Assembly (NCBI RefSeq): GCF_964213995.1
Contig: NC_135808.1
Coordinates: 74,462,001-74,526,000, forward strand
From: Mustelus asterias
Taxonomy: Eukaryota
DNA length: 64,000 bases
Direction: 5' to 3'
Shown here: piece after piece, positions 2,903-59,224 of the stretch
Layout: each line of letters starts with the position of its first letter
Position numbering within the stretch: position 1 is the first letter of the stretch
Notes under the pieces: generated by a model
Database searches by the model: none
What the model was told of the DNA's origin: nothing
The model's input: the letters and a program-made list of their open reading frames with translations, nothing else
Translations under genes and position numbers: made by a program

Positions 2903-3163
2903 CCCCTTGCAGTCCCCAGATTGTCAGTGCTTATTTGGAGTGTGCAACACACACAGCGTCAGTATTGTGGGAGCAGAGTGACGGTGCAGTGAACTACATC
3001 GCAATTGCAGAAGGAATGGAAGGAGACAAGTATTCATGCAATACAACAGAGGAAAGCTGCGAGATCATAGACCTTCCGTGTGGTCAGATGTACAGCATAA
3101 TAATATTAGCAATGGACGAGAGTTGTACCAGTTTACCAAGTCCAGCTTTTGAAATTCAAACAG
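2903..3163 (+). CDS. FN3 exon A, repeat 1 (APCSPQIVSAYLEC...FEIQT)
   Basis: tttcttt-ag|CCCCTTGC ... CAAACAG|gtaaaa; 261 nt, open, 6 Cys. Confidence 0.93.
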
Positions 3164-3460
3164 GTAAAACCTTTGACTTTGTTTTTATGAAGTCCCTGGG
3201 GGTCAGGAAAATTCAGAATTGATGTAACGTTATCAAACTGTATAGTAATAAACACCTCCTCACATTTCGTACATTGCTTAGTTACAAGTGTAACCATTTA
3301 GCAATTCCTATCAGATACCAATCAAACTTTTTTGCTGTTTGTGTTGCAGAGCCCATTCTGATGTACGAATGTTAGATCCATGAACTTTTACACATGCACA
3401 ATACAGGTTTAAATCTACTTTGGGTTATGAATTCTATTCTGTGTTTTCTTCTTTCCACAG

Positions 3461-3721
3461 TGCCTTGTATCCCACAGAATGTGGTCGCTCACATCAACTG
3501 TGAAAGTAATAATGTGTCAGTGTTTTGGGATCCCAGTAATGGTACAGAGTCATACCTTGTAACAGCCCAAGGAAACAATGATCATTGGACCTCATGCAAT
3601 ACAACAGACACTGAATGTGTGATCTCAGATGTGTACTGTGGACTGAGCTACTATATAACTGTACAGGCAATCTGCATGCAATGTAACAGCTCACAAAGCT
3701 CTGCTGTTACAGTTAAAACAG
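3461..3721 (+). CDS. FN3 exon B, repeat 1 (VPCIPQNVVAHINC...VTVKT)
   Basis: ctttccacag|TGCCTTGT ... AAAACAG|gtcatt; 261 nt; donor is gtaatt in the other B copies; extra Cys (AICMQC). Confidence 0.88.
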
Positions 3722-3846
3722 GTCATTCTAAACAATAATTTAAAACAAGAAATTCTCAAATATGTATACATTAGTTGGATAATTGTCACTTTTCATATAG
3801 AAAGTGTTTTTTCAGTAGGTAACATTTGTGAATTCTCTTTTTGCAG

Positions 3847-4101
3847 TACCATGTGTTCCACAGAATGTTGATGCTTACATGAACTGTGATGCTGGATATA
3901 TGTCAGTCTCATGGGAGTTAAGTCAAGGTGCAATATCATACATTGCAACTGCTGAAGGAAGCAATGTACAACAATGCAGCGCTAATGAAACATTGTGTGA
4001 CATCACTGAGCTGGACTGTGGAGAAACCTACACCATCACAGTTCGTGCACACGATGATTCATGTGACACTGCTGAAAGTCCGTCCATCACAAGGAATACA
4101 G
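3847..4101 (+). CDS. FN3 exon C, repeat 1 (VPCVPQNVDAYMNC...ITRNT)
   Basis: tttttgcag|TACCATGT ... AATACAG|gtaact; 255 nt. Confidence 0.93.
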
Positions 4102-4129
4102 GTAACTAAAGAGACATTTCTAATGGATA

Positions 4130-4270
4130 TAGTCACTGGAAACCTCCGATCTCGTCCATGGCTAGGATTGTCTGTTGCGGCTGCAGTGAATGGAGTTTTA
4201 GCTGAACATCAGATTCTCCATCCTCACTGGCATCAGGGTAGGAATGAACGAGATCGGAGAATCCTGCCCA
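4130..4270. mobile_element. Degenerate ~140-bp MITE
   Basis: CTCCGATCTCGT ... ACGAGATCGGAG inverted arms; right end GAATCCTGCCCA like the other MITEs here. Confidence 0.45.
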
Positions 4271-4377
4271 GTGTGTGCAAAGCCTTAGGATGATCCTAAT
4301 GCTGTGTATGTATTTTCCTCACCAATGTGTTCATCCTTTGAAAATCAGTCATCTCTTCACCTCTGAACCAGCCTAAA

Positions 4378-7188: not shown

Positions 7189-8912
7189 AGGCTTAACCAA
7201 GGTCTTATACAACTGCAACAGGATTTTCCAATTCCTTTACTCAATGCCCTGGCCGATGAAGGCCAGCATGCCATACGCCTTCATGATCACCTTGTCCACC
7301 TGAGTTACCACCTTCAGAGAACCAGGAATCTGCACGCTTAGATCCCTCTGTATGCTAATATTTCTAAGGGCGCTATCATTTACTGCATACTTTCCTTCTG
7401 TAGTAGACTTTTCAAATCGGATCACCACACATTTGTCTGGGTTAAATTTGATCTGCCATCTTTCGGCCCAGGTATCCAGCTGATTTATATCCTGCTGTAT
7501 CGTCTGACAATCTGCCCTCACTATCCGCTACTCCCCCAATTTTTGCATTATCTGCAAATTTGCTAATCAGACCACCTACATTTTCCTCCAAATCATTTAT
7601 ATATATTACAAACGACAGAGGTCCCAGCACTGATCCTTGTGGAACACTGCTTGTCACAGACCTCCAGTTAGAAAAGTACCCTTCCACTGCTACTCTCTGC
7701 TTTCTATGCCCAAGTGTGGAGATGCCGGCGTTGGACTGGGGTAAACACAGTAAGAAGTCTCACAACACCAGGTTAAAGTCCAACAGGTTTATTTGGCTAC
7801 CAAATAAACCTGTTGGACTTTAACCTGGTGTTGTGAGACTTCTTACTGTCCTATGCCCAAGCCAGTTTTGTATCCATCTTACCAGCTCACCTCAGATCCC
7901 ATATGACTTCACCTTCTGTATCAGCCTGCCACGAGGAACCTTATCGAAGGCTTTACTGAAGTCCATGTATACAACATCCACTGCCCTGCCCAGGTCAATT
8001 TTTCTTGTCACTTCCTCAAAGGACTCAATCAAGTTTGTGAGACAGAAGAACAATGTTAGCCACTCTCCAATCCTCTGGTACCTCGCCTGTGGCTAAAGAG
8101 GATACAAAGATTTTAGCCAAGGCCTCAGCAATTTCTTCCTTCGCCTCTCTCAATATTCTGGGATAGATCCTATCTGACTCTGGGGACTTGTCCACCTTAA
8201 TGTTTTTCTAAACCTCCAATACCTCGTCCCTTTTTATCTTGTGTGCTAGAATGTCAACATCTTCCTTTCTACTCTCATCATCCACCAATCCTTCTCCTTT
8301 GTGAATACTGATGCAAAGTACTCATTAAGGATCTCACCCACCTCATCTGGCTCCACACAACTTCCCTCCACTGTCCTTGTGTGGACCTACCTTTTCCTCA
8401 GCTTCCCTTTTCCTCCTTATATACGCATAAAAAGTCTTTGGATTCTCCTTAATCCTGCCTGCCAAGGGCATTTCATGGCTCTTTTTGCCCTCCGGAGTCT
8501 CTATTTAAACTCTTTCCTGCTTTCTTTGTACTCCTCAAGAGCCTTATCTGTTTTCAATTTCCTGAAATTTATGTATGCCTCTTTCTTCTTTTTCACTAAG
8601 CTCACAATCTCTCTTGTCATCCAGGGTTCCCGAACCTTGGCATCATTATTCTTCATTTTTACAGGGACATACTTGTCCTGAATTGTTAACAAATGACTTT
8701 TAAAAGACTCCCACATACCGGATGTGGATTTACCATCAAACAGCCACCCTCACTCTACATTCCCTAGCTCCTGCCTAATATTGTCGTAATTAGCCTTCCC
8801 CCAGTTTAGTACTTTCACTCTGGGACTACTTTTATCCTTTTCTACAAGTATCTTGAAACTTATAGAATTGTGATCACTGTTCCCAAATGGTCCCCAACAG
8901 TACCACCTGGAA
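6634..8912 (-). mobile_element. 5'-truncated CR1 (HER1-like) LINE with a broken ORF2
   Basis: ORF pieces VPQGSVLGP, SKFADN, YCVQFWSPHY, FFIQRVVN; (TGTTCTTT)n tail. Confidence 0.9.
7715..7850. mobile_element. Penelope-derived fold-back mini-insertion, 11-bp TSD
   Basis: CTATGCCCAAG at 7704-7714 and 7851-7861; perfect 50-bp arms 7747-7796 / 7800-7849 with a 3-nt loop. Confidence 0.85.
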
Positions 8913-12544: not shown

Positions 12545-12799
12545 TTCCATGTGCCCCTCAGAATGTACAAGCTGATGTTGACACTGCCACAGCTTTTGTA
12601 ACGTGGCAGCCGAGTAATCTCACAGTGTCGTACGCTGCAACAGCAGAGGGGAGTAATGGACACATCACCACCTGTACCACATCGGAAACACACTGTCAAA
12701 TCCCAGATCTTCAATGCAGCCAAATATACAGCATCTCTGTACTGGCATTTGATGAAAACTGCAGCAGCATCCAAAGCTCCAGTTACGATATTCAGACAA
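12545..12799 (+). CDS. FN3 exon F, repeat 1 (VPCAPQNVQADVDTAT...YDIQT)
   Basis: cctcccaaag|TTCCATGT ... CAGACAA|gtaaga; 255 nt; 5 Cys (lacks second Cys). Confidence 0.88.
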
Positions 12800-13160: not shown

Positions 13161-13674
13161 CCACCTTTGTGGGGTCAGTTGGAGCACAAATGGCCCGTCA
13201 GACTCCACAGATCCAGTGCGAGCCTTTAGTACTTTGATTTACACCACATAATAAAAGGGTCACTCATGGGTTGCATTACATGGGTTCTCTTACAGGACCT
13301 GTCACCCTGGTGATGCCATCCTGCAGTTGGGTTCCAGGATGCTCCTGTACACAGTGGCAGGAGTGCAGCTCCATGCCCATTGATTTCATCCCTGTTCAGC
13401 CTACATTTCAGCAACTTTTACTCACTGTGAATATCAGCAATAAGCTAGAGATTTGGGATCTGCATCCTTGTCAGTCCATCTGGCATCATTAAAACAAAGA
13501 TTTGAGCTGAAATTTGGTGGTCCTAAAACACATTTTTTGTACTGACTCACCACAATTATAAGTATGAATCCTTTGTTAAATTTATTTAAGTTTCATGAGC
13601 TGCTAACAAGGACCACTTGACCAAAGCATTGTTTGACATGAACCTAGTGCACATTAATATTTATATTTCCACAG

Positions 13675-13935
13675 CACCATGTTCCCCAGATGAAATCATT
13701 GTGAATGTGAACTGTAATTCTAATAGCGTCATAATACTATGGAGTCAGGCTAATGGAGCTGTGTCATACGATATAACTGCAGAAGGCAGTGATGGACATT
13801 CGCACTCATACAACACAGCCAAGGCACACTATGAAGTTCTGGATTTACACTGTGGACAGTCGTATAATATAACTGTAACAACACTCAGTTACCATCAGAA
13901 TGGCATTTCAAGTACATCTGTCCAAACCCGAACAG
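13675..13935 (+). CDS. FN3 exon G, repeat 1 (APCSPDEIIVNVNC...VQTRT)
   Basis: ttccacag|CACCATGT ... CGAACAG|gtaaag; 261 nt; 3 Cys. Confidence 0.9.
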
Positions 13936-14047
13936 GTAAAGCTATTAATCCTTAAATAATACATAGCATGGAAATACTTTTACCTTTGTTTTTTCTGCAT
14001 GTTTACAGGACAGAGAGACTTGATATTCATGTGTATTTTCTAAATAG

Positions 14048-14308
14048 CACCGTGTGTCCCTGAGAATCTAAAAACTGAGCTGGATTGTGATTCGAACACA
14101 GTCTCCTTCTCGTGGGATGTCACGGATGGAGCAAAGTTATACACTGTGACCGCCCACGATAGTCAAGGAGTCGCAGCTTTATTCAACACCAGAGATACAA
14201 AGGCTCAAATCCCACACCTACAGTGTGGTGAATATTATACAATCTTTGTTCTAGCAACGGATAACATCTGCAAAAGTCCTCAGAGTGCAGTGGTGAATGT
14301 ACATGCAG
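14048..14308 (+). CDS. FN3 exon H, repeat 1 (APCVPENLKTELDC...VNVHA)
   Basis: ctaaatag|CACCGTGT ... CATGCAG|gtaacg; 261 nt; 4 Cys. Confidence 0.92.
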
Positions 14309-15232
14309 GTAACGCCTCATTTCCATAATGCATTTTGTGACAAATGCTTAACAAATGCAATCTTGTGTTTTACGGACAGCATTTAAATGCTTAAATTTTT
14401 AAGCAGTTAATTTTGCTCTGGTGCGGGTTTGTGCATGGTGCAGGTTAAGTTGCTGGAAGGTGCACGGCTGGAATTACTCTGTACGTTGCTGACAATGTAG
14501 ACTGGCAAAGCTGTAGGAATACATTAGGTGCAGTGCTTAAATAGCAGAGGGGAAACAGTGGTCAAGGTGAAATGTTCAGCATTTTATAGCAGAAACCAGT
14601 CCCATCTGGTCTGTCCTTATTTAAGATCTGCTGAATCTTACGGTTGGGTCTCAGGTGGGTATTTGTACTGCCTGAAGCGGGTAGGCGTTTTATTACCGTC
14701 GACATAAGGGTTGGGAATGGTTCATGATTATTTCCAATCACATGAACTGTGCAGCAAGTCTCCAGTGCATCCTACAAAAGCTGACAACAAGGCCTAGCTA
14801 CTCTTGCAGGTGAGAGGGCTTTAAAATGGCTCATACATGTTGAAGGTAAGTGCATTCAATCTTTTAGATGACTCTTTTGTAGTTTTCTTTTTAATCAGTT
14901 CTGGGTTTTCATGATCTTTTGTGTTAGGTGCAATTATTTACTGATTTTGCCCAGGATTTCCTTCATTGGCAACAGAGGATTTGGCACCAGGAAATGTTTG
15001 CTGAGATGCTTGGAGGGAAAAGGAAACATGTGAAAGATGGCTAGTCAGATCAGACTGTACAAGAGTGGCTCTGTGCTTTTCCACACCACTTATACACCCC
15101 AGCATCTGTGGAGAGAAGTAGCCAAATTCACCTTGGCAATGTTTTACAGTTTGGAACCATCAGGCAAATGGTATACTTGAGATGCTTTGAAGAACATTTT
15201 AGTTTCTGCATGTGAACATGACTCAATAGTCA

Positions 15233-16386
15233 TGTAGAAGCATCGGGTTCCAATAACTGGCAACTAGAGGCTAAAAACAGTCGATGTTTATTAACAGTAA
15301 CTGAGCAGCTCTTGCATGCTGTCCGCCTGCACTCCGGGAAAACCCCCAAGCTGCTGTCATGTGATCCCAGTCTGTATCTGCGCCATTCCAACATCCACAT
15401 GACCACCCAGTCTACATCTTCTTCATTTAAGTTGGGAGAGCCTGTAGTACTGAGGTGTAACAATATAGTAGAATAGTCACAAGTATGAACTATTTACGAC
15501 ATATAAAATTAAACTGGGCTAACAACACCTGACTACTTATAACGTGCAGAATACCGATTAGGCTACAGCAACTGGTGCATTGCCCATCGCCTCTCCTTTC
15601 CCCTCCTTTTAGAACACAGTCCATTCATAGATGAGTTCATCACATAGTCCTTGAACATTGTATTTGGTTTATTCGTGTGCCCTGAGTAAGTGATTAGACC
15701 AGTTGGGCGTGCTTGACATGCCCTCGGGTTGATATTTTCAGTGTAAATGGCATCAGGTGTTGTGGCATACCCTGAGGCTGCAGGGCTTGCTGCAGTGGCC
15801 CCTGAAGGGGCCTTCATTTCAGCAGTATTTCAGGATCCTCCTCCTCCATTTGGAAACAAAGGACTTGTATTCCTCAACCGCCTCAGGACCCACTAAATAT
15901 AGGAGTCTGTACACTTGTACCTCTTTGATTTGTCCAAAAGGCTGGCACCACAGTAGATATGACGCTCTTTTTCAAATTTTGTCCAGTTGTCTGAGATGAT
16001 TTTGTCACAGTAAGGAGTCTAACAACACCAGGTTAAAATCCAACAGGTTTATTTGGTAGCAAACACCATGGTGTTTACCCCAGTCCAACGTCGGCATCTC
16101 CACATCATGATTTTGTCAAACACGAGCGGCTCAATGCAGCAAGTGGCCATTCTGTCAATTCCTGAAACCATGCAGAGGTACTGGGTTCCAATACCTGGCG
16201 CCCGGGGACTAACAACAACTGATGTTTATTAACAGTAACTGTGCAGCTCTTAAAGCCTGTGCTCTGGGAGAAATCCTGCACAACTGACATGTGACCCCTT
16301 TTGTATCCACGTCATCGCAGCATTCACATGACCACCTAGTCTACAAGTCACTTCGATAATACTAGTCACTTGTTAGTGCTGTCGCA
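15233..16386 (-). mobile_element. Internally deleted, decayed Gypsy (Mag-like) LTR element
   Basis: Diverged direct repeats starting at 15233 and 16171; minus strand ...TGCA|TGGTTTCAG (PBS), gag start MATCCIEPLVFDKIISDNWTKFEKE...QVYRLLYLVGPEAVEEY, integrase-tail-like KDYVM, purine tract AAAAGGAGGGGAAAGGAGAGG before the 3' LTR. Confidence 0.6.
16008..16106. mobile_element. Penelope-derived mini-insertion with inverted 5' part, 12-bp TSD
   Basis: ATGATTTTGTCA at 15996-16007 and 16107-16118; 16008-16068 inverted, 16071-16106 direct. Confidence 0.85.
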
Positions 16387-16612
16387 ATACAGAATTAATG
16401 CAGGTTTACATTTATGGTGTTAATTTGGATGAAGTATGGACACACTCCATACTTTCATTTTCTATTCAAATTCCTGCGCTTCTAGAATGAAAAGTTTGAA
16501 TACAATTATTGATTGTTTAGTAAACACGTCCATCCAATTATTTATTTGAACTTACATTAATGATTTGATTCTATCAACTGACATCCATTCTCACTTTCAA
16601 TCTTATTTTCAG

Positions 16613-16873
16613 TCCCTTGTGATCCACAGAATGTAGAAGTGAGACTGGATTGTAACCTAAATACAGCTTTGGTGTCGTGGGATGACAGTAGAGGGGCGCT
16701 GTTGTACACTGCCTTTGCTGAAGGACCCGGTGGGAGCATCACATCGTGCAGCACATCAGAAACATCATGTAGAACTCCCAAGTTACTCTGTGGCCAGTTA
16801 TATTCTGTATATGTCATCGCGTCTGACAGCACATGTAACCAATCTCAGAGTTCAATGGTTGAGCTTCAAACAG
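16613..16873 (+). CDS. FN3 exon I, repeat 1 (VPCDPQNVEVRLDC...VELQT)
   Basis: ttattttcag|TCCCTTGT ... CAAACAG|gtaact; 261 nt. Confidence 0.93.
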
Positions 16874-17372: not shown

Positions 17373-17633
17373 CCCCTTGCAGTCCCCAGATTGTCAGTGC
17401 TTATTTGGAGTGTGCAACACACACAGCGTCAGTATTGTGGGAGCAGAGTGACGGTGCAGTGAACTACATCGCGATTGCAGAAGGAATGGAAGGAGACAAG
17501 TATTCATGCAATACAACAGAGGAAAGCTGCGAGATCGTAGACCTCCCGTGTGGTCAGATATACAGCATCACGATATTAGCAATGGATGAGAATTGTGCTA
17601 GTTTACCAAGTCCAGCTTTGGAAATTCAAGCAG
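17373..17633 (+). CDS. FN3 exon A, repeat 2
   Basis: cctttag|CCCCTTGC ... CAAGCAG|gtaaaa; 261 nt. Confidence 0.93.
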
Positions 17634-23137: not shown

Positions 23138-23398
23138 TGCCTTGTATCCCACAGAATGTGGTCGCTCACATCAACTGTGAAAGTAATAATGTGTCAGTGT
23201 TTTGGGATCCCAGTAATGGTACAGAGTCATACCTTGTAACAGCCCAAGGAAACAATTATCATTGGACCTCATGCAATGCAACAGACACTGAATGTGTGAT
23301 CTCGGATGTGTACTGTGGACTGAGCTACTATATAACTGTACAGGCAATCCGCATGCAATGTAACAGCTCACAAAGCTCTGCTGTTACAGTTAAAACAG
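23138..23398 (+). CDS. FN3 exon B, repeat 2
   Basis: ttttcgcag|TGCCTTGT ... AAAACAG|gtaatt; 261 nt. Confidence 0.93.
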
Positions 23399-23425
23399 GT
23401 AATTCTAGACAAGGAATTGGGCAGT

Positions 23426-23498: not shown

Positions 23499-23510
23499 GT
23501 AAACTTTCTT

Positions 23511-24801: not shown

Positions 24802-25056
24802 TACCATGTACCCCACAGAATGTTGATGCTTACATGAACTGTGATGCTGGATATATGTCAGTCTCATGGGAGTTAAGTCAAGGTGCAATATCATACATTG
24901 CAACTGCTGAAGGAAGCAATGTACAACAATGCAGCGCTAATGAAACATTGTGTGACATCACTGAGCTGGACTGTGGAGAAACCTACACCATCACAGTTCG
25001 TGCACACGATGATTCATGTGACACTGCTGAAAGTCCGTCCATCACAAAGAAAACAG
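24802..25056 (+). CDS. FN3 exon C, repeat 2
   Basis: tttttgcag|TACCATGT ... AAAACAG|gtaact; 255 nt. Confidence 0.93.
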
Positions 25057-25257: not shown

Positions 25258-25518
25258 CATCGTGCATCCCACAGAATCTCGATGTCCAGCTGGATTGTAA
25301 CACAAACGATGCTTCTGTGTCCTGGGGCCACACTAAAGGTGCAGTGTCGTACTCTGCAACAGCAGAGGGAGGTGATGGGCACACAGTATCATGTGATACA
25401 GCCAACAGACAGTGTCAAATAGCCAATCTACACTGTGGACAGATGTACAATTTAACTCTGACAGCACTGGATGGTGTATGTGACACTTCACAAAGCTCTC
25501 ATTTTGAATTCAGCACTG
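25258..25518 (+). CDS. FN3 exon D, repeat 2 (ASCIPQNLDVQLDC...FEFST)
   Basis: cttttcag|CATCGTGC ... AGCACTG|gtaagt; 261 nt. Confidence 0.93.
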
Positions 25519-26026: not shown

Positions 26027-26287
26027 CACCGTGTGCTCCAGATGAAATCATTGTGAATGTGGACTGTAATTCAAATAGAGTAGTAGCATCGTGGGGATGG
26101 TCTGATGGAGCGATATTATACGATGTAACTGCAGAAGGCAGTGATGGACATACACACTCTCACAACACAACAGAGACAAGCTATGAGATGTTGGATTTAC
26201 ACTGTGGACAGACCTATAACATAACAGTGACAACACTCCGATATAGCCGGAGTGGCTTCTCAAGCACTTCTGTCCAAATACAATCTG
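26027..26287 (+). pseudogene. FN3 exon G, repeat 2: open frame but 5' splice donor lost (probable pseudo-exon, skipped exon or read-through terminal exon)
   Basis: Acceptor cccacag|CACCGTGT intact; the donor position reads CAATCTG|acatct versus CAAACTG|gtacta in repeat 3; read-through gives DIYY-TAA ending at 26301. Confidence 0.75.
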
Positions 26288-26399: not shown

Positions 26400-26660
26400 C
26401 ACCGTGTGTTCCTGAGAATCTAAAAGCTGAGCTGGATTGTGATTCGAACAGAGTCTCATTCTCATGGGATGTCACGGATGGAGCAAAGTTATACACTGTG
26501 ACCGCTCAAGATAGCCAAAGAGTCGCAGCTTTATTCAACACCAGCGATACAAAGGCTCAGATCCCACACCTGCAGTGTGGTGAATATTATACAATCTCTG
26601 TTCTAGCAACAGACAACATCTGCAAAAATCCTCAGAGTGCAGTGGTGAATGTACATGCAG
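26400..26660 (+). CDS. FN3 exon H, repeat 2
   Basis: ctaaatag|CACCGTGT ... CATGCAG|gtaacg; 261 nt. Confidence 0.92.
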
Positions 26661-30472: not shown

Positions 30473-30733
30473 TCCCTTGCAATCCACAGAATGTAGAAGT
30501 GAGACTGGATTGTAACCTAAATACAGCTTTGGTGTCATGGGATGACAGTAGAGGGGCGCTGTTGTACACTGCCTTTGCTGAAGGACCCAATGGGAGCATC
30601 ACATCGTGCAGCACATCAGAAACATCATGTAGAACTCCCAAGTTACTCTGTGGCCAGTTATATTCTGTATATGTCATCGCGTCTGACAGCACATGTAACC
30701 AATCTCAGAGTTCAGTGGTTGAGCTTCAAACAG
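30473..30733 (+). CDS. FN3 exon I, repeat 2
   Basis: ttattttcag|TCCCTTGC ... CAAACAG|gtaact; 261 nt. Confidence 0.93.
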
Positions 30734-33857: not shown

Positions 33858-34118
33858 CCCCTTGCAGTCCCCAGATTGTCAGTGCTTCTTTAGAGTGTGC
33901 AACACACACAGCGTCAGTATTGTGGGAGCAGAGTGACGGTGCAGTGAACTACATCGCAATTGCAGAAGGAATGGAAGGAGACAAGTATTCATGCAATACA
34001 ACAGAGGAAAGCTGCGAGATCATAGACCTCCCGTGTGGTCAGATGTACAGTATAATAATATTAGCAATGGACGAGAGTTGTGCTAGTTTACCAAGTCCAG
34101 CTTCGGAAATTCAAACAG
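33858..34118 (+). CDS. FN3 exon A, repeat 3
   Basis: tctttag|CCCCTTGC ... CAAACAG|gtaaaa; 261 nt. Confidence 0.93.
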
Positions 34119-34568: not shown

Positions 34569-34829
34569 TGCCTTGTATCCCACAGAATGTGGTCGCTCAC
34601 ATCAACTGTGAAAGTAATAATGTGTCAGTGTTTTGGGATCCCAGTAATGGTACAGACTCGTACCTTGTAACAGCCCAAGGAAACAATGATCATTGGACCT
34701 CATGCAATGCAACAGACACTGAATGTGTGATCTCAGATGTGTACTGTGGACTGAGCTACTATGTAACTGTACAGGCAATCCGCATGCAATGTAACAGCTC
34801 ACAAAGCTCTGCTGTTACGGTTAAAACAG
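34569..34829 (+). CDS. FN3 exon B, repeat 3
   Basis: ttccgcag|TGCCTTGT ... AAAACAG|gtaatt; 261 nt. Confidence 0.93.
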
Positions 34830-34973: not shown

Positions 34974-35228
34974 TGCCATGTATCCCACAGAATGTTGATG
35001 CTTACATGAACTGTGATGCTGGATATATGTCAGTCTCATGGGAGTTAAGTCAAGGTGCAATATCATACATTGCGACTGCTGAAGGAAGCAATGTACAACA
35101 ATGCAGCGCTAATGAAACCTTGTGTGACATCACTGAGCTGGACTGTGGAGAAACCTACACCATCACAGTTCGTGCACACGATGATTCATGTGACACTGCT
35201 GAAAGTCCGTCCATCACAAAGAAAACAG
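34974..35228 (+). CDS. FN3 exon C, repeat 3
   Basis: tttttgcag|TGCCATGT ... AAAACAG|gtaact; 255 nt. Confidence 0.93.
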
Positions 35229-35429: not shown

Positions 35430-35690
35430 CATCATGCATCCCACAGAATCTCGATGTCCAGCTGGATTGTAACACAAACGATGCTTCTGTGTCCTGGGGC
35501 CACACTAAAGGTGCAGTGTCGTACTCTGCAACAGCAGAGGGAGGTGATGGGCACACAGTATCATGTGATACAGCCAACAGACAGTGTCAAATAGCCAATC
35601 TACACTGTGGACAGATGTACAATTTAACTCTGACAGCACTGGATGGTGTATGTGACACTTCACAAAGCTCTCATTTTGAGTTCAGCACTG
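35430..35690 (+). CDS. FN3 exon D, repeat 3
   Basis: cttttcag|CATCATGC ... AGCACTG|gtaagt; 261 nt. Confidence 0.93.
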
Positions 35691-40750: not shown

Positions 40751-41011
40751 CCCCGTGTGCACCCCAATATATTGACACCAGCCTAAACTGTGTCACCAAG
40801 ACTACGACAGTGACATGGGAGGAGAGTGATGGTGCGCTGTGGTACATCACAACAGCAGAAGGACAAGATGGACATGTAACACTGTGCAATACAACAGAGA
40901 CAAGCTGTACGTTCATGGACCTGCACTGCAGTCAGACATATTTAATCACTGTCAAAGCACTGGATGGTTATTGTCAGAGCGTAAACACTTCTACTTTTGA
41001 AATTGAACCAG
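40751..41011 (+). CDS. FN3 exon E, repeat 3 (APCAPQYIDTSLNC...FEIEP)
   Basis: tatttcgcag|CCCCGTGT ... GAACCAG|gtaaag; 261 nt. Confidence 0.93.
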
Positions 41012-44344: not shown

Positions 44345-44599
44345 TACCCTGTCCTCCTCAGAATGTACAAGCTGATATTGACACTCTCACTGCCTTTGTA
44401 ACGTGGGAGCCGAGTAATCTCACAGTGTCGTACGCTGTAACAGCAGAGGGGTGTGATGGACACATCGCCACCTGCGCCACATCGGAAACACACTGTGTAA
44501 TCCCAGATCTTCACTGCAGCCAAATATACAGCATCTCTGTACTGGCATTTGGTGAAAACTGTAGCAGCATCCAAAGCTCTAGTTATGACATTTGGACAG
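44345..44599 (+). CDS. FN3 exon F, repeat 3 (VPCPPQNVQADIDTLT...YDIWT)
   Basis: cactgaag|TACCCTGT ... TGGACAG|gtaata; 255 nt; lacks second Cys, gains a Cys in EGCDG. Confidence 0.85.
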
Positions 44600-45340: not shown

Positions 45341-45601
45341 CACCGTGTGCTCCAGATGAAATCATTGTGAATGTGGACTGTAATTCGAATAGAGTAGTAG
45401 CATCGTGGGGACGGACTGATGGAGCGATATTATACAATGTAACTGCAGAAGGCAGTGATGGACATACGCACTCTCACAACACAACAGAGACAAGCTATGA
45501 AATGCTGGATTTGCACTGTGGACAGACCTATAACGTAACAGTGACAACACTCCATTATAGCCGGAGTGGCTTCTCAAGCACTTCTGCCCAAATCCAAACT
45601 G
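45341..45601 (+). CDS. FN3 exon G, repeat 3
   Basis: ttttacacag|CACCGTGT ... CAAACTG|gtacta; 261 nt; 3 Cys. Confidence 0.88.
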
Positions 45602-45714: not shown

Positions 45715-45975
45715 CACCGTGTGTTCCTGAGAATCTAAAGGCTCAGCTGGATTGTCATTCGAACACAGTCTCCTTCTCGTGGGATGACACTGATGGAGCA
45801 AAGTTATACACTGTGATCGCCCAAGATAGTCAAAGAGTCGCAGCTTTATTCAACACCAGCGATACAAAGGCTCATATCCCACACCTGCAGTGTGGTGAAT
45901 ATTATACAATCTCTGTTCTAGCTACAGACAACATCTGCAAAAATCCTCAGGGTGCAATGGTGAATGTAGATTCAG
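45715..45975 (+). CDS. FN3 exon H, repeat 3
   Basis: ctaaatag|CACCGTGT ... GATTCAG|gtaatg; 261 nt. Confidence 0.92.
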
Positions 45976-46429: not shown

Positions 46430-49400
46430 AACATAAGAACATAAGAAATAGGAGCAGGAGTAGGCCATCTAGCCCCTCGAGCCTGCCCCGCCATTCAATA
46501 AGATCATGGCTGATCTGACGTGGATCAGTACCACTTACCCGCCTGATCCCCATAACCCTTAATTCCCTTACCGATCAGGAATCCATCCATCCGCGCTTTA
46601 AACATATTCAGCGAGGTAGCCTCCACCACCTCAGTGGGCAGAGAATTCCAGAGATTCACCACCCTCTGGGAGAAGAAGTTCCTCCTCAACTCTGTCTTAA
46701 ACCGACCCCCCTTTATTTTGAGGCTGTGTCCTCTAGTTTTAACTTCCTTACTAAGTGGAAAGAATCTCTCCGCCTCCACCCTATCCAGCCCCCGCATTAT
46801 CTTATAAGTCTCCATAAGATCCCCCCTCATCCTTCTAAACTCCAACGAGTACAAACCCAATCTCCTCAGCCTCTCCTCATAATCCAAACCCCTCATCTCC
46901 GGTATCAACCTGGTGAACCTTCTCTGCACTCCCTCCAATGCCAATATATCCTTCCTCATATAAGGGGACCAATACTGCACACAGTATTCCAGCTGCGGCC
47001 TCACCAATGCCCTGTACAGGTGCATCAAGACATCCCTGCTTTTATATTCTATCCCCTTCGCAATATAGGCCAACATCCCATTTGCCTTCTTGATCACCTG
47101 TTGTACCTGCAGACTGGGCTTTTGCGTCTCATGCACAAGGACCCCCAGGTCCCTTTGCACGGTAGCATGTTTTAATTTGTTTCCATTGAGATAGTAATCC
47201 CATTTGTTATTATTTCCTCCAAAGTGTATAACCTCGCATTTCTCAACGTTATACTCCATTTGCCATATCCTCGCCCACTCACTCAGCCTGTCCAAATCTC
47301 TCTGCAGATCTTCTCCGTCCTCCACACGATTCACTTTTCCACTTATCTTTGTGTCGTCTGCAAACTTCGTTACCCTACACTCCGTCCCCTCCTCCAGATC
47401 ATCTATATAAATGGTAAATAGTTGCGGCCCGAGTACCGATCCCTCCGGCACGCCACTAGTTACCTTCCTCCAACCGGAAAAACACCCATTTATTCCGACT
47501 CTTTGCTTCCTGTCGGATAGCCAGTCCCCAATCCACTTTAACACACTACCCCCAACTCCGTGTGCCCTAATCTTCTTCAGTAGCCTTTTATGGGGCACCT
47601 TATCAAACGCCTTTTGGAAATCCAAAAACACCGCATCCACCGGTTCTCCTCCATCAACCGCCCTAGTCACATCTTCATAAAAATCCAACATGTTCGTCAA
47701 GCACGACTTTCCCCTCATGAATCCATGCTGCGTCTGATTGATCGAACCATTTCTATCCAGATGCCCTGCTATCTCCTCTTTAATAATGGATTCCAGCATT
47801 TTCCCTACTACAGACGTTAAGCTGACCGGCCTATAGTTACCCGCCTTTTGTCTCCTTCCTTTTTTAAACAGCGGCGTAACATTAGCCGTTTTCCAATCAA
47901 CCGGCACTACCCCAGAATGCAACGAGTTTTGATAAATAATCACTAACGCATCCACTATTACCTCTGACATTTCTTTCAATACCCTGGGATGCATTCCATC
48001 CGGACCCGGGGACTTATCCACCTTCAGTCCCATTAGTCTACCCAGCACTGCCTCTCTGGTAACATTAATGGTATTAAGTATTTCTCCTGCTGCCAACCCT
48101 CTATCGTTAATATTTGGCAAACTATTTGTGTCCTCCACCGTGAAGACCGACACAAAAAACTTATTTAAAGACTCAGCCATATCCTCATTTCCCACTATTA
48201 ACTCCCCCCTCTCGTCCTCCAAGGGTCCAACATTCACTCTAGCCACTCTATTCCTTTTTATATATTTATAAAAACTTTTACTATCATTTTTTATATTAAT
48301 TGCTAGCCGAGCTTCATAGTCTATCCTTCCTTTCTTTATCGCTTTCTTAGTCTCTCTTTGTTGTTTCTTAAATTTTTCCCAATCACTTGTTTCTCCACTA
48401 TTTTTGGCCACTCTGTACGCAGCTGTTTTTATTTTAATACTCTCCTTTATTTCCTTCGTTATCCACGGCTGGTTCTCCCTTTTCTTACAATCCTTGTTTT
48501 TTGCTGGAATATATTTTTGCTGAGAACTGAAAAGGATCTCCTTAAAAATCCTCCACTGTTCCTCAGCTATCCTACCTGCCAGCCTGCTCTCCCAGTCTAC
48601 CTTAGCCAATTCATCCCTCATCCTATCATATTTCCCTCTGTTCAAACAGAGGACACTGGTTTGGGACCAAACTTTCTCCTCTTCCATCTGAATCAGAAAT
48701 TCGACCATATTGTGGTCACTAGACCCAAGAGGGTCCTTCACAATAAGATCCTTAATTCTACCTACCTCGTTACACAATACCAGATCCAAAATAGCTCGTT
48801 CCCTCGTCGGTTCCGTAACATGCTGTTCAAGGAAACTATCCCGACAGCATTCTAAGAACTCTTCCTCCATTCCACCCTTACCGACTTGAGTCTGCCAGTC
48901 AATGTGCATGTTGAAGTCCCCCATGATTATTGCCGTTCCGTTTTTACACGCATCCCTTATCTGCTTGTTTATAGCCCTCCCTACCTCAACATTATTATTT
49001 GGGGGCCTATATACCACACCTACTAGTGTCTTTCTCCCTCTACTATTCCTCATCTCTACCCATAATGATTCCACGTTTTGTTCCTCAGAGCCTATGTCAT
49101 CCCTCAGTACTACCCTGATATTATCTCTTATTAATAGCGCGACCCCACCACCTTTTCCTTCCTGTCTATTCTTCCTAAACGCCTGATACCCCTGGATATT
49201 CATCTCCCAGTCCTGGTCACCTTTCAGCCACGTTTCTGTAATGGCCACTAGATCGTACCCACTTGTGCTGATTTGCACCATCAACTCATTTACCTTGTTC
49301 CGAATGCTTCGTGCATTCAGGCAAAGTGTCCTTATTCCAGCTTTTATCTGGACCCGCTTTGATGAGTCGCGAACACCCTCTCCCTCTACTCCCTTATCTA

Positions 49401-49740
49401 AATTACCGCCTTCATTCACTTGCACTCTCTCCTCTACCATTAATTTTGTAATTCCCCTTACCCCTGCATCCTCCACCCCATCAATTAGTTCCTTGATCCT
49501 AGTCAACTCTTCTAGCTCCCCTCCCCCCAACCTATCTAGTTTAAATTCTCCCCAGTAACCTTAGCCAACCTACCGGCCAGGATATTGGTCCCCGTGTGAT
49601 TCAAGTTCCACCCGTTTTTTGTATACAGATCACCCCTGCCCCTAAAGAGGTCCCAATGGTCCAGGAACCTGAATCCCTGCCCCCTGCACCAGTCCCTCAG
49701 CCACACATTCATCTTCCACCTCACTCCATTCCTGCCCTCA
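46430..49740 (-). mobile_element. Young CR1 LINE, truncated within ORF1, ORF2 open
   Basis: (TTCTTATG)n tail; ORF1 esterase-like C-terminus 49536-~49735; flanks join to match the empty site in the H-I intron of repeat 2 (~27085); many CpGs retained. Confidence 0.95.
46525..49530 (-). CDS. CR1 ORF2: AP endonuclease plus reverse transcriptase, 1001 codons (the listed start is TTG; first ATG at MVEERV)
   Basis: LNARSI, ITETW, GDFN, SDH (APE); KSPGPDG, NYRPVSL, DFQKAFD, VPEGSVLGP, FADD (RT). Confidence 0.92.
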   Translation of the reverse strand: MGGGELEELTRIKELIDGVEDAGVRGITKLMVEERVQVNEGGNLDKGVEGEGVRDSSKRVQIKAGIRTLCLNARSIRNKVNELMVQISTSGYDLVAITETWLKGDQDWEMNIQGYQAFRKNRQEGKGGGVALLIRDNIRVVLRDDIGSEEQNVESLWVEMRNSRGRKTLVGVVYRPPNNNVEVGRAINKQIRDACKNGTAIIMGDFNMHIDWQTQVGKGGMEEEFLECCRDSFLEQHVTEPTRERAILDLVLCNEVGRIKDLIVKDPLGSSDHNMVEFLIQMEEEKVWSQTSVLCLNRGKYDRMRDELAKVDWESRLAGRIAEEQWRIFKEILFSSQQKYIPAKNKDCKKRENQPWITKEIKESIKIKTAAYRVAKNSGETSDWEKFKKQQRETKKAIKKGRIDYEARLAINIKNDSKSFYKYIKRNRVARVNVGPLEDERGELIVGNEDMAESLNKFFVSVFTVEDTNSLPNINDRGLAAGEILNTINVTREAVLGRLMGLKVDKSPGPDGMHPRVLKEMSEVIVDALVIIYQNSLHSGVVPVDWKTANVTPLFKKGRRQKAGNYRPVSLTSVVGKMLESIIKEEIAGHLDRNGSINQTQHGFMRGKSCLTNMLDFYEDVTRAVDGGEPVDAVFLDFQKAFDKVPHKRLLKKIRAHGVGGSVLKWIGDWLSDRKQRVGINGCFSGWRKVTSGVPEGSVLGPQLFTIYIDDLEEGTECRVTKFADDTKISGKVNRVEDGEDLQRDLDRLSEWARIWQMEYNVEKCEVIHFGGNNNKWDYYLNGNKLKHATVQRDLGVLVHETQKPSLQVQQVIKKANGMLAYIAKGIEYKSRDVLMHLYRALVRPQLEYCVQYWSPYMRKDILALEGVQRRFTRLIPEMRGLDYEERLRRLGLYSLEFRRMRGDLMETYKIMRGLDRVEAERFFPLSKEVKTRGHSLKIKGGRFKTELRRNFFSQRVVNLWNSLPTEVVEATSLNMFKARMDGFLIGKGIKGYGDQAGKWY

Positions 49741-51667: not shown

Positions 51668-51928
51668 TGCCTTGTGATCCACAGAATGTAGAAGTGAGAC
51701 TGGATTGTAACCTAAATACAGCTTTGGTCTTGTGGGATGACAGTAGAGGGGCGCTGTTGTACACTGCCTTTGCTGAAGGACCCGATGGGAGCATCACATC
51801 GTGCAGCACATCAGAAACATCATGTAGAACTCCCAAGTTACTCTGTGGCCAGTTATATTCTGTATATGTCATCGCGTCTGACAGCACATGTAACCAATCT
51901 CAGAGTTCAATGGTTGAACTTCAAACAG
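51668..51928 (+). CDS. FN3 exon I, repeat 3
   Basis: ttattttcag|TGCCTTGT ... CAAACAG|gtaact; 261 nt. Confidence 0.93.
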
Positions 51929-54283: not shown

Positions 54284-54544
54284 CCCCTTGCAATCCCCAG
54301 ATTGTCAGTGCTTATTTGGAGTGTGAAACACACACAGCGTCAGTATTGTGGGAGCAGAGTGACGGTGCAGTGAACTACATCGCAATTGCAGAAGGAACGG
54401 AAGGAGACAAGTATTCATGCAATACAACAGAGGAAGGCTGTGATATCGTAGACCTCCCGTGTGGCCAGATGTACAATATAACAATATTAGCAATGGATAA
54501 AAGTTGTGCCAGTTTACCAAGTCCAGCTTTTGAAATTCAAACAG
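54284..54544 (+). CDS. FN3 exon A, repeat 4
   Basis: tctttag|CCCCTTGC ... CAAACAG|gtaaaa; 261 nt. Confidence 0.93.
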
Positions 54545-54728: not shown

Positions 54729-54989
54729 TGCCTTGTATCCCACAGAATGTGGTCGCTCACATCAACTGTGAAAGTAATAATGTGTCAGTGTTTTGGGATC
54801 CCAGTAATGGTACAGAATCATACCTTGTAACAGCCCAAGGAAACAATGATCATTGGACCTCATGCAATGCAACAGACACTGAATGTGTGATCTCAGATGT
54901 GTACTGTGGACTGAGCTACTATATAACTGTACAGGCAATCCGCATGCAATGTAACAGCTCACAAAGCTCTGCTGTTACAGTTAAAACAG
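54729..54989 (+). CDS. FN3 exon B, repeat 4
   Basis: tttcgcag|TGCCTTGT ... AAAACAG|gtaatt; 261 nt. Confidence 0.93.
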
Positions 54990-55128: not shown

Positions 55129-55383
55129 TACCATGTGTTCCACAGAATGTTGATGCTTACATGAACTGTGATGCTGGATATATGTCAGTCTCATGGGAGT
55201 TAAGTCAAGGTGCAATATCATACATTGCGACTGCTGAAGGAAGCAATGTACAACAATGCAGTGCTAATGAAACATTGTGTGACATCACTGAGCTGGACTG
55301 TGGAGAAACCTACACCATCACAGTTCGTGCACACGATGATTCATGTGACACTGCTGAAAGTCCGTCCATCACAAAGAAAACAG
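55129..55383 (+). CDS. FN3 exon C, repeat 4
   Basis: ttttgcag|TACCATGT ... AAAACAG|gtaact; 255 nt. Confidence 0.93.
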
Positions 55384-55432
55384 GTAACTAAAGAGAAGAG
55401 GATTTTTCCATATCAGGGATTGCTGCATCAAT

Positions 55433-56851
55433 GTTGTGCCTTTGTTTAAAAAGGGCTGCGGGGAAAAGCCTGGGAACTACAGGCCAGTGAGCCTCACATC
55501 TGTGGTGGGTAAGTTGTTGGAGGGTAATTTGAGAGACAGGTTCTACAGACATTTAGAGATGCAAGGACTGATTAGGGACAGTCAGCATGGCTTTGTGAGT
55601 GGAAAATCATGTCTCACAAATTTGATTGAGTTTTTTGAAGGGGTAACCAAGAAGGTAGATGAGGACAGTGTAGTTGATGTTGTCTACATGGACTTTAGCA
55701 AGGTCTTTGACAAGGTACCGCATGGTTGGTTGTTGCATAAGGTTAAATCACACGGGACCCAGGGTGAGGTATCTAAATGGATACAAAATTGGCTTCTTGA
55801 CAGAAGATAGAGGGTGGTTGTAGAAGCCTGGAGGCCTGTGACCAGAGGTGTGCCTCATGGATCAGTGCTGGGTCCACTGTTATTTGTAATCTATATTAAC
55901 AATTTGGATGAGAATATAGGAGGCATGGTTAGTAAGTTTGCAGATGACACCAAGATTGGTGGCATAGTGGACAGTGAAGAAAGTTATCTGCGATTGCAAC
56001 GGGATCTTAATCAATTGGGCCAGTGGGCTGACGAATGGCAGATGGAGTTTAATTTAGATAAATGTGAGGTGATACATTTTGGTAGATTGAACCAGGGCAG
56101 GACTTACTCAGTTAATGGTAGGGCGTTGGGGAGAGTTACAGAACAAAGAGATCTAGGGGTACCTGTTCATAGTTCTTTGAAAGTGGAGTTACAGATGGAC
56201 AGAGTGGTGAAGAAGGCATTCAGCTTGCTTGGTTTCATTGGTCAGAACATTGAATACAGGAGTTGGGACGTCTTGTTGAAGTTGTACAAGACATTGGTAA
56301 GCTCACACATGGAATACTGTGTACAGTTCTGGTCACCCTACTATAGGAAGGATATTATTAAACTAGAAAGAGTGCAGAAAAGATTTACTAGGATGCTGCC
56401 GGGATTTGATGGTTTGAGTTATAAGGAGAGGCTGGATAGACTGGGACTTTTTTCACTGGAACGTTGAAGGCTGAGGGGTGATCTTATAGAGGTCTATAAA
56501 ATAATGAGGGGCACCAATCAGCTAGATAGTCAATATCTTTTCCCAAAGGTAGGGGAGTCTAAAACTAGAGGGTATAGGTTTAAGGTGAGAGGGGAGAGAT
56601 ACAAAAGTGTCCAGAGGGGCAATTTTTTCACAGAGGGTGGTGAATGTCTGGAACAAGCTGCCAGAGGTAGTAGTAGAGGCGGGTACAATTTTGTCTTTTA
56701 AAAAGCATTTAGACAGTTACATAGGTAAGATGGGTATAGAGGGATATGGCCAAATGCAGGCATAAGCTTAGGGGTTTTAAAAAAAAGGCGGAATGGACAA
56801 GTTGGGCTGAAGGGCCTGTTTCTATGCTGGAAACCTGTATGACTCTATGAC
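55433..56851 (+). mobile_element. 5'-truncated CR1 inserted in the C-D intron of repeat 4, TCAAT duplication
   Basis: TCAAT at 55428-55432 and 56852-56856; empty site GCTGCATCAATCTCACTAACC in repeats 2 and 3; RT motifs NYRPVSL, DFSKVFD, FADD. Confidence 0.93.
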
Positions 56852-57008
56852 TCAATCTCACTAACCCTGATTTCTACACTGCCCAAATACTGTTCTCTAG
56901 AAAAACTCACAAATACATTTGCACAAAGATTTCAGTTAGATTTTAATTCCACAAAGATAAGCAGCTGCTGGTCAAGTTCTCTTCATCTGCTCTTTTCATT
57001 CTTTTCAG

Positions 57009-57269
57009 CATCGTGCATCCCACAGAATCTCGATGCCCAGCTGGATTGTAACACAAACGATGCTTCTGTGTCCTGGGGCCACACTAAAGGTGCAGTGTCG
57101 TACTCTGCAACAGCAGAGGGAAGTGATGGGCACACAGTATCATGTGATACAGCCAACAGACAGTGTCAAATAGCCAATCTACACTGTGGACAGATGTACA
57201 ATTTAACTCTGACAGCACTGGATGGTGTATGTGACACTTCACAAAGCTCTCATTTTGAATTCAGCACTG
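57009..57269 (+). CDS. FN3 exon D, repeat 4
   Basis: cttttcag|CATCGTGC ... AGCACTG|gtaagt; 261 nt. Confidence 0.93.
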
Positions 57270-57399
57270 GTAAGTCTTTTGTGTGGAATCGGGTGGTTCA
57301 AAACCGGTACAACTGATTCCCACAACAGCTTGATTTATTTAAAAGTAAAATACTGCGGATGCTGGAAATCTGAAATAACCTTTTTCAGAGTAAATGAGA

Positions 57400-57745
57400 G
57401 AGGATAGCCTAGTGGTATTGTTGCCAGACTATTAATCCAGAAACTCAGCTAATGTTCTGGAGACCTGGGTTTGAATCCCACCACAGCAGATGGTTGAATT
57501 TGAAATCAATAAATTATCTGGAATTAAAAATCTATTGATGACCGTGAAACCATTGTCAATTGTCAGAAAAACCCATCTGGTTCACTGATGTTCTTGAGGG
57601 AAGGAAATCTGCCGTCCTTACCTGGTCTGGCCTACATGTTACTCCAGAACCACAGCAATGACTCTTAACTGCCCTCGAGCAACTGGGGATGGGTAATAAA
57701 TGCTGGCCGGCCAGGGACGCCCATGTCCCACGAATGAATTCAAAG
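57400..57745 (+). mobile_element. tRNA-derived SINE (fourth family) whose tail matches the LINE 3' end at 6418-6480
   Basis: TAGCCTAGTGG A box, GGTTTGAATCC B box, tail AATAAATGCTGGCCGGCCAGGGACGCCCATGTCCCACGAATGAAT. Confidence 0.75.
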
Positions 57746-58963
57746 AAAACAATTATCCCAAAGCACTTCGTTGAGACAGGGAATATGGATATCAAGCAGG
57801 AATTGGGAGATGCTGTGATTGAAGGCAAGGTCTGAAGCGCTAAGTTTTATGCAGCATTTTGACGATAGGTAGGGAGATAGTAAATCAAATTAAATTCCAC
57901 CCAAAAATTTCATGATGGCTGAAAGCTCCGTCTCTAACACTGGAGTGGAACATGTGAGTGGCAGGAAAAAGCTGGGTGGGGGGAAAGAACAAAATATTCC
58001 AGAATCCGAAGATGAGGGGCTAAAAACCGGGATAAAGAGCTCAAGTTGTTTTCTGAAGCAGAGTGGAGTGAGGCAATGGTGAGACTTGAAGTCATACTAA
58101 AGAAAGATTGTTATTTATCTAGCATCCTTTACAACTTTAAAAGCACATAACAACCAATGAAGTATTTTTTTAATGTAGTCACTGATGTATTGTAGGAAAT
58201 GCTTTAGAGATGGTGATTGGAGAAGAGGTGTGACAGATGTTCTGTGCACGATGGAGTTTTGTAGGATGCCCCTGTGAAGAATTGCAGTGAAGTTGACAAT
58301 ATGCTGCCTATATAAACCTATTTCACTGGAATACATTTCCATTCTATGATTCTATGAAGTGGTCATGTATTGTGTTTTTTGCTACAGTTGATTCTGTGAT
58401 ATCGTGTACTTGGAAACAAATGTGAAAATGTGGATCAAACATACACATTATTCCCCTTTATGAACTATAGGCTTAATTTTCTCCCTGTTATCCTGGTCCT
58501 TGGGGAATAGTTAACCTTTTCTATCAGTTAAATGCCAAATGACCTCCAGTATAAGAGTTAAGAAGGACTATAAATACAACAGCTAAAAATGTAACTACAA
58601 CAACACATGTCCAAATAATAAAGTTTAAGTACTGAATTGTGAAAAAATGCCTTAATCTTAATACACCAGAATGGCTAAAGGTTTATTTAATTCTCAGTGA
58701 AACCAGTGCCATCTATGAGTGAAACAAAGACATTTACCTTTGAAAGAGAGATGCATCGTATTTTTAAAAATAATCTATATTTTCGCTAGTAACCATTCCA
58801 ACAGATGCAATCAAATGTGTTATTTCCCAAAAGAAAATGTTAATTAATGTAAATTTTGTTCAGGAGCACCAATATAATTACAGTGGCATTCTTGTTTTGA
58901 ATGTTTTAGATTGTCGATATTTCTTGTCCTCTCACAGCCAGTTTGTGTTTGTGTATTTCGCAG

Positions 58964-59224
58964 CCCCGTGTGCACCCCAATATATTGACACAAGCCTAAA
59001 CTGTGTCACCAAGACTACGACAGTGACATGGGAGGAGAGTGATGGTGCGCTGTGGTACATCACAACAGCAGAAGGACAAGATGGACATGTAACACTGTGC
59101 AATACAACAGAGACAAGCTGTACGTTCATGGACCTGCACTGCAGTCAGACATATTTAATCACTGTCAAAGCACTGGATGATTATTGTCAGAGCGTAAACA
59201 CTTCTACTTTTGAAACTGAACCAG
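58964..59224 (+). CDS. FN3 exon E, repeat 4
   Basis: tatttcgcag|CCCCGTGT ... GAACCAG|gtaaag; 261 nt. Confidence 0.93.

Follow-up and report, generated by a model that had tools for sequence, protein, structure and literature searches.

A giant FNDC7-related gene with a nine-domain repeat of fibronectin type III exons in the shark Mustelus asterias

One giant gene around the repeat exons

A stretch of 64,000 nucleotides on contig NC_135808.1 of Mustelus asterias (positions 74,462,001 to 74,526,000, forward strand; hereafter the window) carries a long series of similar exons, each encoding a single domain resembling fibronectin type III (FN3), and poses the question of what these exons belong to, whether they are still in use, and what their product might do. 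The exons are the middle of one giant gene, a tandem paralogue of FNDC7 of the fndc7b/fndc7rs kind. This is very probably one live gene, and it likely encodes, judging from its translation, a secreted and unanchored protein.

The window exons were located by a motif scan of the plus strand (window coordinates 1-64000) and then checked for splice sites. The scan gave 28 one-domain FN3-like exons within 2903..59224, in the type order ABC--FGHI, ABCD--GHI, ABCDEFGHI, ABCDE; two more motif matches, at 31586 and 60005, were discarded as chance. Each of the 28 is preceded by an AG acceptor, two bases ahead of its first full codon (phase 1), and their lengths of 255 or 261 nt sum to 7,272 nt, or 2,424 codons. 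The original prediction, made from the letters of the window, had described these 28 phase-1 exons, nine types, and 2,424 codons correctly but overlooked a lost donor. A phase-1 GT follows 27 of the 28 exons, the exception being exon G of unit 2 (G2, 26027-26287), which has AC where the other five G copies have GT. The frame of G2 is open and its acceptor intact; reading through the lost donor meets a stop, and the exon is likely skipped in the transcript.

All nine exon types match the Pfam fn3 profile (PF00041), six of them at or above the curated cut-off, and the types share 31-48% identity with type A. Because same-type copies are 90-99.6% identical in DNA (divergent G copies down to 76.7%) and the ratio of non-synonymous to synonymous rates (dN/dS) among repeat copies is 0.39, the array is not a product of chance. 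Distinct variants numbered 102 synonymous and 146 non-synonymous (509 versus 1,801 sites; ratio 0.40, p 1e-11), and no stop or frameshift was found in 43 repeat exons; the repeat exons are under purifying selection. An assembly artefact, raised by the original prediction as a possible refutation, is ruled out, since just two stretches of at least 150 nt, both exon-sized, reach 98% identity between units and contigs of other samples cover the exon flanks. These contigs come from two samples of the best-matching organism and also cover intron stretches, with 0-8 differences in 13 of the 16 pieces listed, although both samples share a study with the best-matching sequence source and are not fully independent. 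Splicing was assessed by comparing 4 of 24 listed runs on 13600-23500; among the sources listed as containing the window sequence itself none is RNA, which speaks neither for nor against expression. Intron-free contigs were present in two runs that are presumably RNA, from two other organisms and two studies: a contig of one organism runs from B through exactly 1,032 nt, the length of C, D, E, and F together, into G and H, and contigs of the second join H to I and A to B.

The 464 kb around the window were examined by profile searches and catshark-guided tblastn. The gene spans 168 kb, beginning about 60 kb before the window and ending about 44 kb after it, and its start, 60 FN3 exons, and stop all lie on one strand, as the proposal of a single giant FNDC7-related gene requires; the signal and terminal exons expected in the flanks were both found there. 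Genome matches to exon C fall on the same contig, between 74.42 and 74.56 Mb, in 57 of 57 cases. The features are listed below; coordinates outside 1-64000 extend the window numbering, and contig position equals 74462000 plus the coordinate.

-59865, +, ATG and signal-like exon (signal judged by eye)
-59663, +, 19-nt exon
-50819, -48372, -41600, +, three basic head FN3 exons
-39038 to -27419, +, exons u1-u5
-27418 to -13228, +, dead block
-13227 to -479, +, exons u9-u12, f0, G, H, I
2903 to 89604, +, five A-I units of 7, 7, 9, 9, and 8 exons
91031 to 99808, +, exons t1-t4
104368-104421, +, exon with RRKR
from 108001, +, last exon

Repeat exons within the window:

2903..3163, +, exon A, unit 1
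3461..3721, +, exon B, unit 1
3847..4101, +, exon C, unit 1; D and E missing after it, as in unit 1 of two catshark models
12545..12799, +, exon F, unit 1
13675..13935, +, exon G, unit 1; divergent, groups by position with catshark G1
14048..14308, +, exon H, unit 1
16613..16873, +, exon I, unit 1
17373..17633, +, exon A, unit 2
23138..23398, +, exon B, unit 2
24802..25056, +, exon C, unit 2
25258..25518, +, exon D, unit 2; E and F deleted 3' of it, intron to G 508 nt
26027..26287, +, exon G, unit 2; acceptor intact, donor GT lost
26400..26660, +, exon H, unit 2
30473..30733, +, exon I, unit 2
33858..34118, +, exon A, unit 3
34569..34829, +, exon B, unit 3
34974..35228, +, exon C, unit 3
35430..35690, +, exon D, unit 3
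40751..41011, +, exon E, unit 3
44345..44599, +, exon F, unit 3; AB-turn Cys absent, extra Cys36
45341..45601, +, exon G, unit 3; Cys 2, 13, and 59 only
45715..45975, +, exon H, unit 3
51668..51928, +, exon I, unit 3
54284..54544, +, exon A, unit 4
54729..54989, +, exon B, unit 4
55129..55383, +, exon C, unit 4
57009..57269, +, exon D, unit 4
58964..59224, +, exon E, unit 4; F-I of unit 4, unit 5, and the terminal exons lie beyond the window

Once the dead block and exon G2 are omitted, the frame is open for 5,172 residues and 59 FN3 domains. The predicted protein has about 5.9% Cys and 110 sequons, as rich in both as had been claimed, and the nine-domain super-repeat also held, as five units in A-I order. 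The suggestion that the protein is secreted or on the cell surface stood in its first part, given the signal-like start, but not in its second: the hydrophobicity of the C-terminal end gave no transmembrane tail or membrane anchor. Each coding exon found encodes FN3, signal, or short tail, with no ZP domain among them. The head is basic and the remainder almost wholly acidic.

Relatives were sought with two queries. The A-I profile, run against proteins of up to 2,000 residues, gave 112 matches, about 90 of them in the family, and recovered elasmobranch and teleost FNDC7-related proteins, a check that the original prediction had proposed. Two cyprinid fndc7rs4 models are among those matching this profile, which places rs4 in the giant kind. 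The catshark query, in a word-based search with a protein length limit of 5,000, gave 101 giants of 3,460-4,960 residues in sturgeons, gar, teleosts, lungfish, frogs, and catshark (three weak unrelated matches were dropped); they are named fndc7b, fndc7rs1, or otherwise and are 32-40% identical to the query. The Mustelus protein shares their Cys-poor head, followed by a long array with cysteines at domain positions 2, 13, 45, 52, 59, and 74, and a basic motif (RRKR) after the last Cys-containing FN3 domain without a transmembrane tail; a weakly hydrophobic tail window occurs in 3 of the 101 giants. Most bony-fish models have an FN3-sized piece after the cleavage motif, which is absent in sharks, lungfish, and some carp models; being variable, this piece was not used to define the family. 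Four ray models have two extra t1-like domains before the tail that are absent in shark models. By its sequence, then, the giant is a member of an annotated but uncharacterized giant FNDC7-related family, in a shark-and-ray variant. In the literature searched, which covered few subscription papers, the giant protein, its repeat, and its disulfides are not described, and in the parts available the genes appear only as list entries or expression markers.

A separate short FNDC7 gene with nine FN3 exons lies about 40 kb upstream on the same strand (contig 74342000-74362300) and is 32-69% identical to the short FNDC7 proteins of bichir and axolotl. It is this neighbor, not the giant, that has the roughly nine FN3 domains of short FNDC7. 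The pair is flanked by Sec1-family and PRP38-family genes, which lie on the opposite strand; the human order is PRPF38B-FNDC7-STXBP3, with the genes on one strand.

Several repeats occupy the introns of the window. A minus-strand long interspersed nuclear element (LINE) at 46528-49560, between H and I of unit 3, has an uninterrupted 1,011-codon frame with endonuclease and reverse transcriptase domains and looks young. Between E and F of unit 4 lies a minus-strand element resembling a long-terminal-repeat retrotransposon (59748-63569), with aspartyl protease, reverse transcriptase, RNase H, and integrase in several frames, an order that we take to suggest Ty3/Gypsy. The intron between E and F of unit 3 holds 86 copies of an 11-nt tandem unit (42535-43480, 89% matches). 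The C-D intron of unit 4, 200 nt elsewhere, is enlarged by a LINE fragment (55388-56840) flanked by conserved intron parts. A short palindromic repeat family with 65-nt arms is represented at 7732-7864, and a similar copy with a target-site repeat lies inside exon u7.

A predicted disulfide-stapled rod

The cysteines of the array point to bridges between neighboring domains. Over 4,572 domains, each of the six cysteine positions is occupied in 88-96% of cases, and Cys45 covaries with Cys52 of its own domain (phi 0.84). Across 2,873 junctions of the 101 giant relatives, Cys13 of one domain and Cys74 of the next are both present in 2,760 and both absent in 99, with 14 discordant (12 and 2; phi 0.93), whereas Cys13 and Cys74 of the same domain hardly covary (phi 0.15). 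When 87 shorter models were added and the window widened, the 3,470 junctions gave 3,323/34/3/110 (in the order 2,760/12/2/99 of the first set; phi 0.86). Grouped into 367 junction clusters, the both-absent state occurs in 24, Cys13 only in 12, and Cys74 only in 3. Cys2 and Cys59 are near invariant; at the two ends of the array, the last domain has Cys2 but neither Cys13 nor Cys59, and the first has no Cys2. An AlphaFold model of a horn-shark fragment shows about seven strands per domain, with Cys13 in the A-B turn, Cys59 in the E-F loop, and Cys74 in the F-G loop. In FN3 topology the A-B turn and E-F loop lie at one end and the F-G loop at the opposite end, so that Cys13 and Cys59 are modeled at one end of the fold and Cys2 and Cys74 at the other. 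Disulfide stapling of neighboring domains is thus predicted with considerable confidence.

Domain F may offer a further contact. In rays and in sevengill, horn, and saw sharks it has an odd cysteine at position 11; three of four copies here and two of five in catshark have one at position 36 instead, and basking-shark F has none. A spare thiol of F cross-linking chains is possible on this pattern. The junction D2-G2 is the sole cysteine mismatch among repeat junctions here. The idea that loss of the G2 donor rescued cysteine pairing was not counted, as a similar Cys stays without a partner at the F-G junction of rays and basal sharks. The original prediction that any subset of exons could be skipped is borne out for the reading frame, but neighboring domains share cysteine partners, and no alternatively spliced form was seen.

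Of the 101 giants, 87 have a basic cleavage motif within their final 220 residues, mostly 97-120 residues from the end, compared with 10 of 1,561 control windows. Tissue data are available for relatives, in each case from the accessible parts of the source. Paddlefish FNDC7 has log2 5.05 (33-fold) in a lateral-line-enriched set (PMC5429088). Support cells of zebrafish neuromasts contain fndc7a, and those of the mantle and polar kinds contain fndc7rs4 (PMC6363392); fndc7a also marks a neuromast-like cluster in the fin (PMC11789645). An inner-ear table for zebrafish lists all six paralogues, with fndc7a, rs1, rs2, and rs4 in one gene module of the ear (PMC9851615), and mouse Fndc7 is 138-fold in cochlear support cells, eighth among support-cell genes (PMC5137903). 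The accessible main text of a catshark sensory-organ paper mentions neither FNDC nor fibronectin (PMC11979771), and the literature titles found held nothing relevant on an ampullary jelly proteome. By analogy with these relatives, a hair-cell or electrosensory organ is probably the site of the protein.

The proposed model is as follows. The protein would have about 5,170 residues and 59-60 FN3 domains and be secreted without an anchor, its transcript leaving out the dead nine-exon block and exon G2. Bridges Cys13(n)-Cys74(n+1) and Cys59(n)-Cys2(n+1) would join neighbors, with Cys45-Cys52 internal, and two bridges at each joint predict a stiff rod. At about 3.5 nm per FN3 domain, this rod would be about 200 nm long. 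Furin would cut off the C-terminal piece on secretion, the basic head would bind the acidic rod or a sulfated sugar, and the rod would be laid down in the gel from support cells of lateral-line and electrosensory organs. The nine-domain period would survive from ancient duplications within the gene, the copies having been held similar by gene conversion of exons. Taken whole, the reading of an FN3 rod that is secreted, trimmed by furin, stapled by disulfides, and destined for a sense-organ gel is somewhat favored. A far bolder version is speculative and rather unlikely: that jawed vertebrates with a lateral line would make undescribed 200-nm FN3 filaments with two disulfides per joint, released by furin, as the fibrous scaffold of the neuromast cupula and, for sharks and rays, of the ampullary gel, where spare cysteines would cross-link them every nine domains, and that amniotes lost the giant when the lateral line disappeared, retaining short FNDC7 in the ear.

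The analysis puts together a vertebrate protein of 5,000 residues that is fragmented in shark and ray annotation and nominates a candidate filament for cupula and ampullary gel, the make-up of which is incompletely known.

Alternatives, the dead block, and the origin of the period

A number of observations count against the model or parts of it. Neither Cys59 nor Cys2 varies, which puts their pairing beyond the reach of covariation, and the horn-shark fold model is a modest one (predicted local distance difference test, pLDDT, 68; predicted template modeling score, pTM, 0.28). The F-G junction is a standing exception to the pairing rule: of the 21 such junctions listed for sharks and rays, 14 combine an AB-turn Cys in F with a G that lacks Cys74. 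The tissue data come from paralogues in other species, and the paddlefish locus may be short FNDC7. No amniote protein is among the 100 named giants, in word-based searches with length limits; a search with exon t3 gave 7 elasmobranch proteins only and is too insensitive to probe amniotes. The I-A joint is absent among the contig matches listed for the runs compared. Last, the dead block lacks six of nine exons here, and of the rest, u6 has an intact acceptor but is interrupted by a LINE, u7 is frameshifted and contains an insertion bearing a target-site repeat, and u8 has a TAG between two intact splice sites, so that plain splicing into u6 or u8 would run into a stop; the skipping of the block and of G2 is deduced from sequence.

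The alternative that survives best, although unlikely, is that the same stapled secreted rod serves another matrix, such as skin or gill mucus, egg jelly, or basement membrane. The lack of an amniote giant would fit any aquatic surface, and like-named genes occur in gut, gonad, and jaw transcriptomes, which in the material accessible may be other 'protein 7-like' genes. Set against this, data from three species point to support cells of hair-cell organs or to lateral-line tissue, as do, within the available text, the fin cluster (PMC11789645) and the shared ear module (PMC9851615).

Less probable still is that the gene is truncated or dying in this shark, with splicing into u6 or u8 ending translation after about eight domains and the repeats kept tidy by conversion rather than selection. 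The interval u5-u9 holds nine domains in the catshark model and seven of those nine in the basking-shark model, and with this nine-exon block broken or lost the gene must skip it or is failing. The lesions of u6, u7, and u8, the six exons gone, the lost G2 donor, and the deletion of E and F from unit 2 all suit a dying gene; no remnants of D and E (unit 1), E and F (unit 2), or the six upstream domains were detected by hidden Markov model search, blastn, or tblastn. The lesions are, nevertheless, confined to the block, affecting 9 of 9 exons inside it and 0 of 19 unique exons outside (p 1e-7, overstated since one deletion takes several exons). Sixteen of these 19 were compared with catshark and are 76-91% identical (upstream 76-91%, downstream 77-87%), and the unique downstream exons, which conversion could not repair, are intact, as are the 43 repeat exons. 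Exon u8 is 85% identical to catshark on a short branch and may instead still be live, its stop being either recent or a consensus error. We infer that the gene is live and that the dead block is now skipped.

The idea that the period acts as a titin-like ruler, here extended so that the unpaired F cysteine cross-links chains once per unit in a lattice of about 30 nm, fares slightly worse and is improbable. The A-I order is preserved, whole or partial, in models from sevengill, horn, zebra, basking, and saw shark and six ray genera, with occasional one-domain gaps, and each type forms one clade across sharks and rays (Shimodaira-Hasegawa-like approximate likelihood ratio test, SH-aLRT, 96-100, quick tree). 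The odd Cys of F in several lineages, and a lost upstream block that is itself nine domains long, would suit such a lattice. Units short by two or three domains are tolerated, however, ray models have one-domain gaps, and basking-shark F lacks the odd Cys. Among 19 proteins profiled, clear periods of 9, 3, 5, and 6 were found in four, with 3 in Pseudorasbora, 5 in Brienomyrus rs1, and 6 in Pelobates, and none in most, including most bony-fish giants; three frogs show a weak lag-9 rise (35% versus mostly 29-33%). In 12 of 12 proteins from bony fish, lungfish, and frogs, no A-I register was clearly above 40 shuffles. As the period differs or is absent in relatives, the ruler put forward in the original prediction is unsupported.

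The history of the repeat argues instead for old units kept alike. All three species with a full repeat model, Scyliorhinus canicula, S. torazame, and this shark, have five units and share the absence of D and E from the first unit and of I from the last. Copies of A, B, C, and H taken together group by lineage (100/100), whereas the G1 copies of the three species cluster by position (100/100), and G1 here is 79% identical to catshark G1 versus 62-67% to other catshark G copies; G1 escaped homogenization and dates the layout. The catshark G of unit 2 has also escaped, at the same position as the loss of E, F, and the G donor here. Away from the exons, identity between units mostly drops off over 50-200 nt, and flank identity is mostly 0.5-0.7 beyond 100-200 nt (background 0.58), save across the short C-D and G-H introns; long introns are barely alignable, with persisting patches of 70-85%. 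The shared layout, lineage grouping, and diverged introns together indicate old units, stable in number, with homogenized exons, most simply explained by gene conversion that would be centered on exons at fixed copy number. Recent unequal crossover, by which the original prediction had the length vary, is not supported, given five units in all three species, introns barely alignable, and losses of two exons rather than nine, which crossover between units would not be expected to produce. The locus offers a clean case of concerted evolution focused on exons, with copy number fixed and one escaped copy.

That the locus is a cluster of several shorter genes, as database fragment models imply, is hardly credible: shark and ray databases do hold separate pieces of 350-1,960 residues, and catshark is split into 1,959 and 4,001, but most pieces start and stop mid-domain, the 464 kb hold one head and one tail besides short FNDC7, and bony-fish relatives are single models of 3,460-4,960 residues. 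The two catshark models are XP_038649438.1 and XP_038650716.1.

Comparison with known systems

The closest systems are the giant fndc7b and fndc7rs1-4 models and their LOC counterparts, known from automatic annotation only, which have the same signal-like start, Cys-poor head, long Cys-FN3 array, cysteine pattern, and basic cleavage motif and likewise no anchor. The nine-domain A-I repeat was found only in sharks and rays, the head here is more basic (+21 or +22 versus -1 to +5), and about 23 residues follow the basic site compared with about 100 in most bony-fish models. Short FNDC7 (about 820 residues in bichir and axolotl) shares three Cys-free FN3 domains followed by Cys-FN3 domains, a basic C-terminal motif, and a locus between PRP38-family and Sec1-family genes, and is 30-33% identical to the second head domain of the giant, but has nine domains rather than 60.

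The super-repeats of the titin A-band and of nebulin also repeat a fixed order of domain types along the chain, as the shark protein does. A fold search returned generic FN3/Ig arrays (query template modeling, TM, score at most 0.22); the top matches, by domain content only, are chains of thick-filament structures (TM 0.17), which we take to be titin. Atlas look-ups likewise yielded FN3 and FNDC7 clusters and no others. The shark protein differs from titin in being predicted to be extracellular and disulfide-rich, in its homogenized copies, and in a period that is not conserved in its family, and it is not known to have a periodic partner. Multi-exon units more than 90% identical within one gene are shared with the long homologous repeats of complement receptor 1 (CR1), the kringles of LPA, and the nebulin triplicate. 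In repeats of the CR1/LPA type, introns are duplicated with exons and copy number varies, whereas here identity fades 50-200 nt from most exons and three species have five units.

A functional parallel may be drawn with ZPLD1/cupulin, a secreted, N-glycosylated protein that reaches a sense-organ gel after cleavage at a C-terminal furin site, described in a paper whose accessible text does not contain the word 'fibronectin' (PMC4219815). Secretion, N-glycosylation, a C-terminal furin site, and a sense-organ gel would be common to cupulin, the tectorins, and the shark protein, for which they are predicted; the former have a ZP fold and a membrane anchor, the latter an FN3 rod without one. Packing or ions usually give FN3 arrays their stiffness; in contrast, the stiffening predicted here would come from covalent bridges at each joint.

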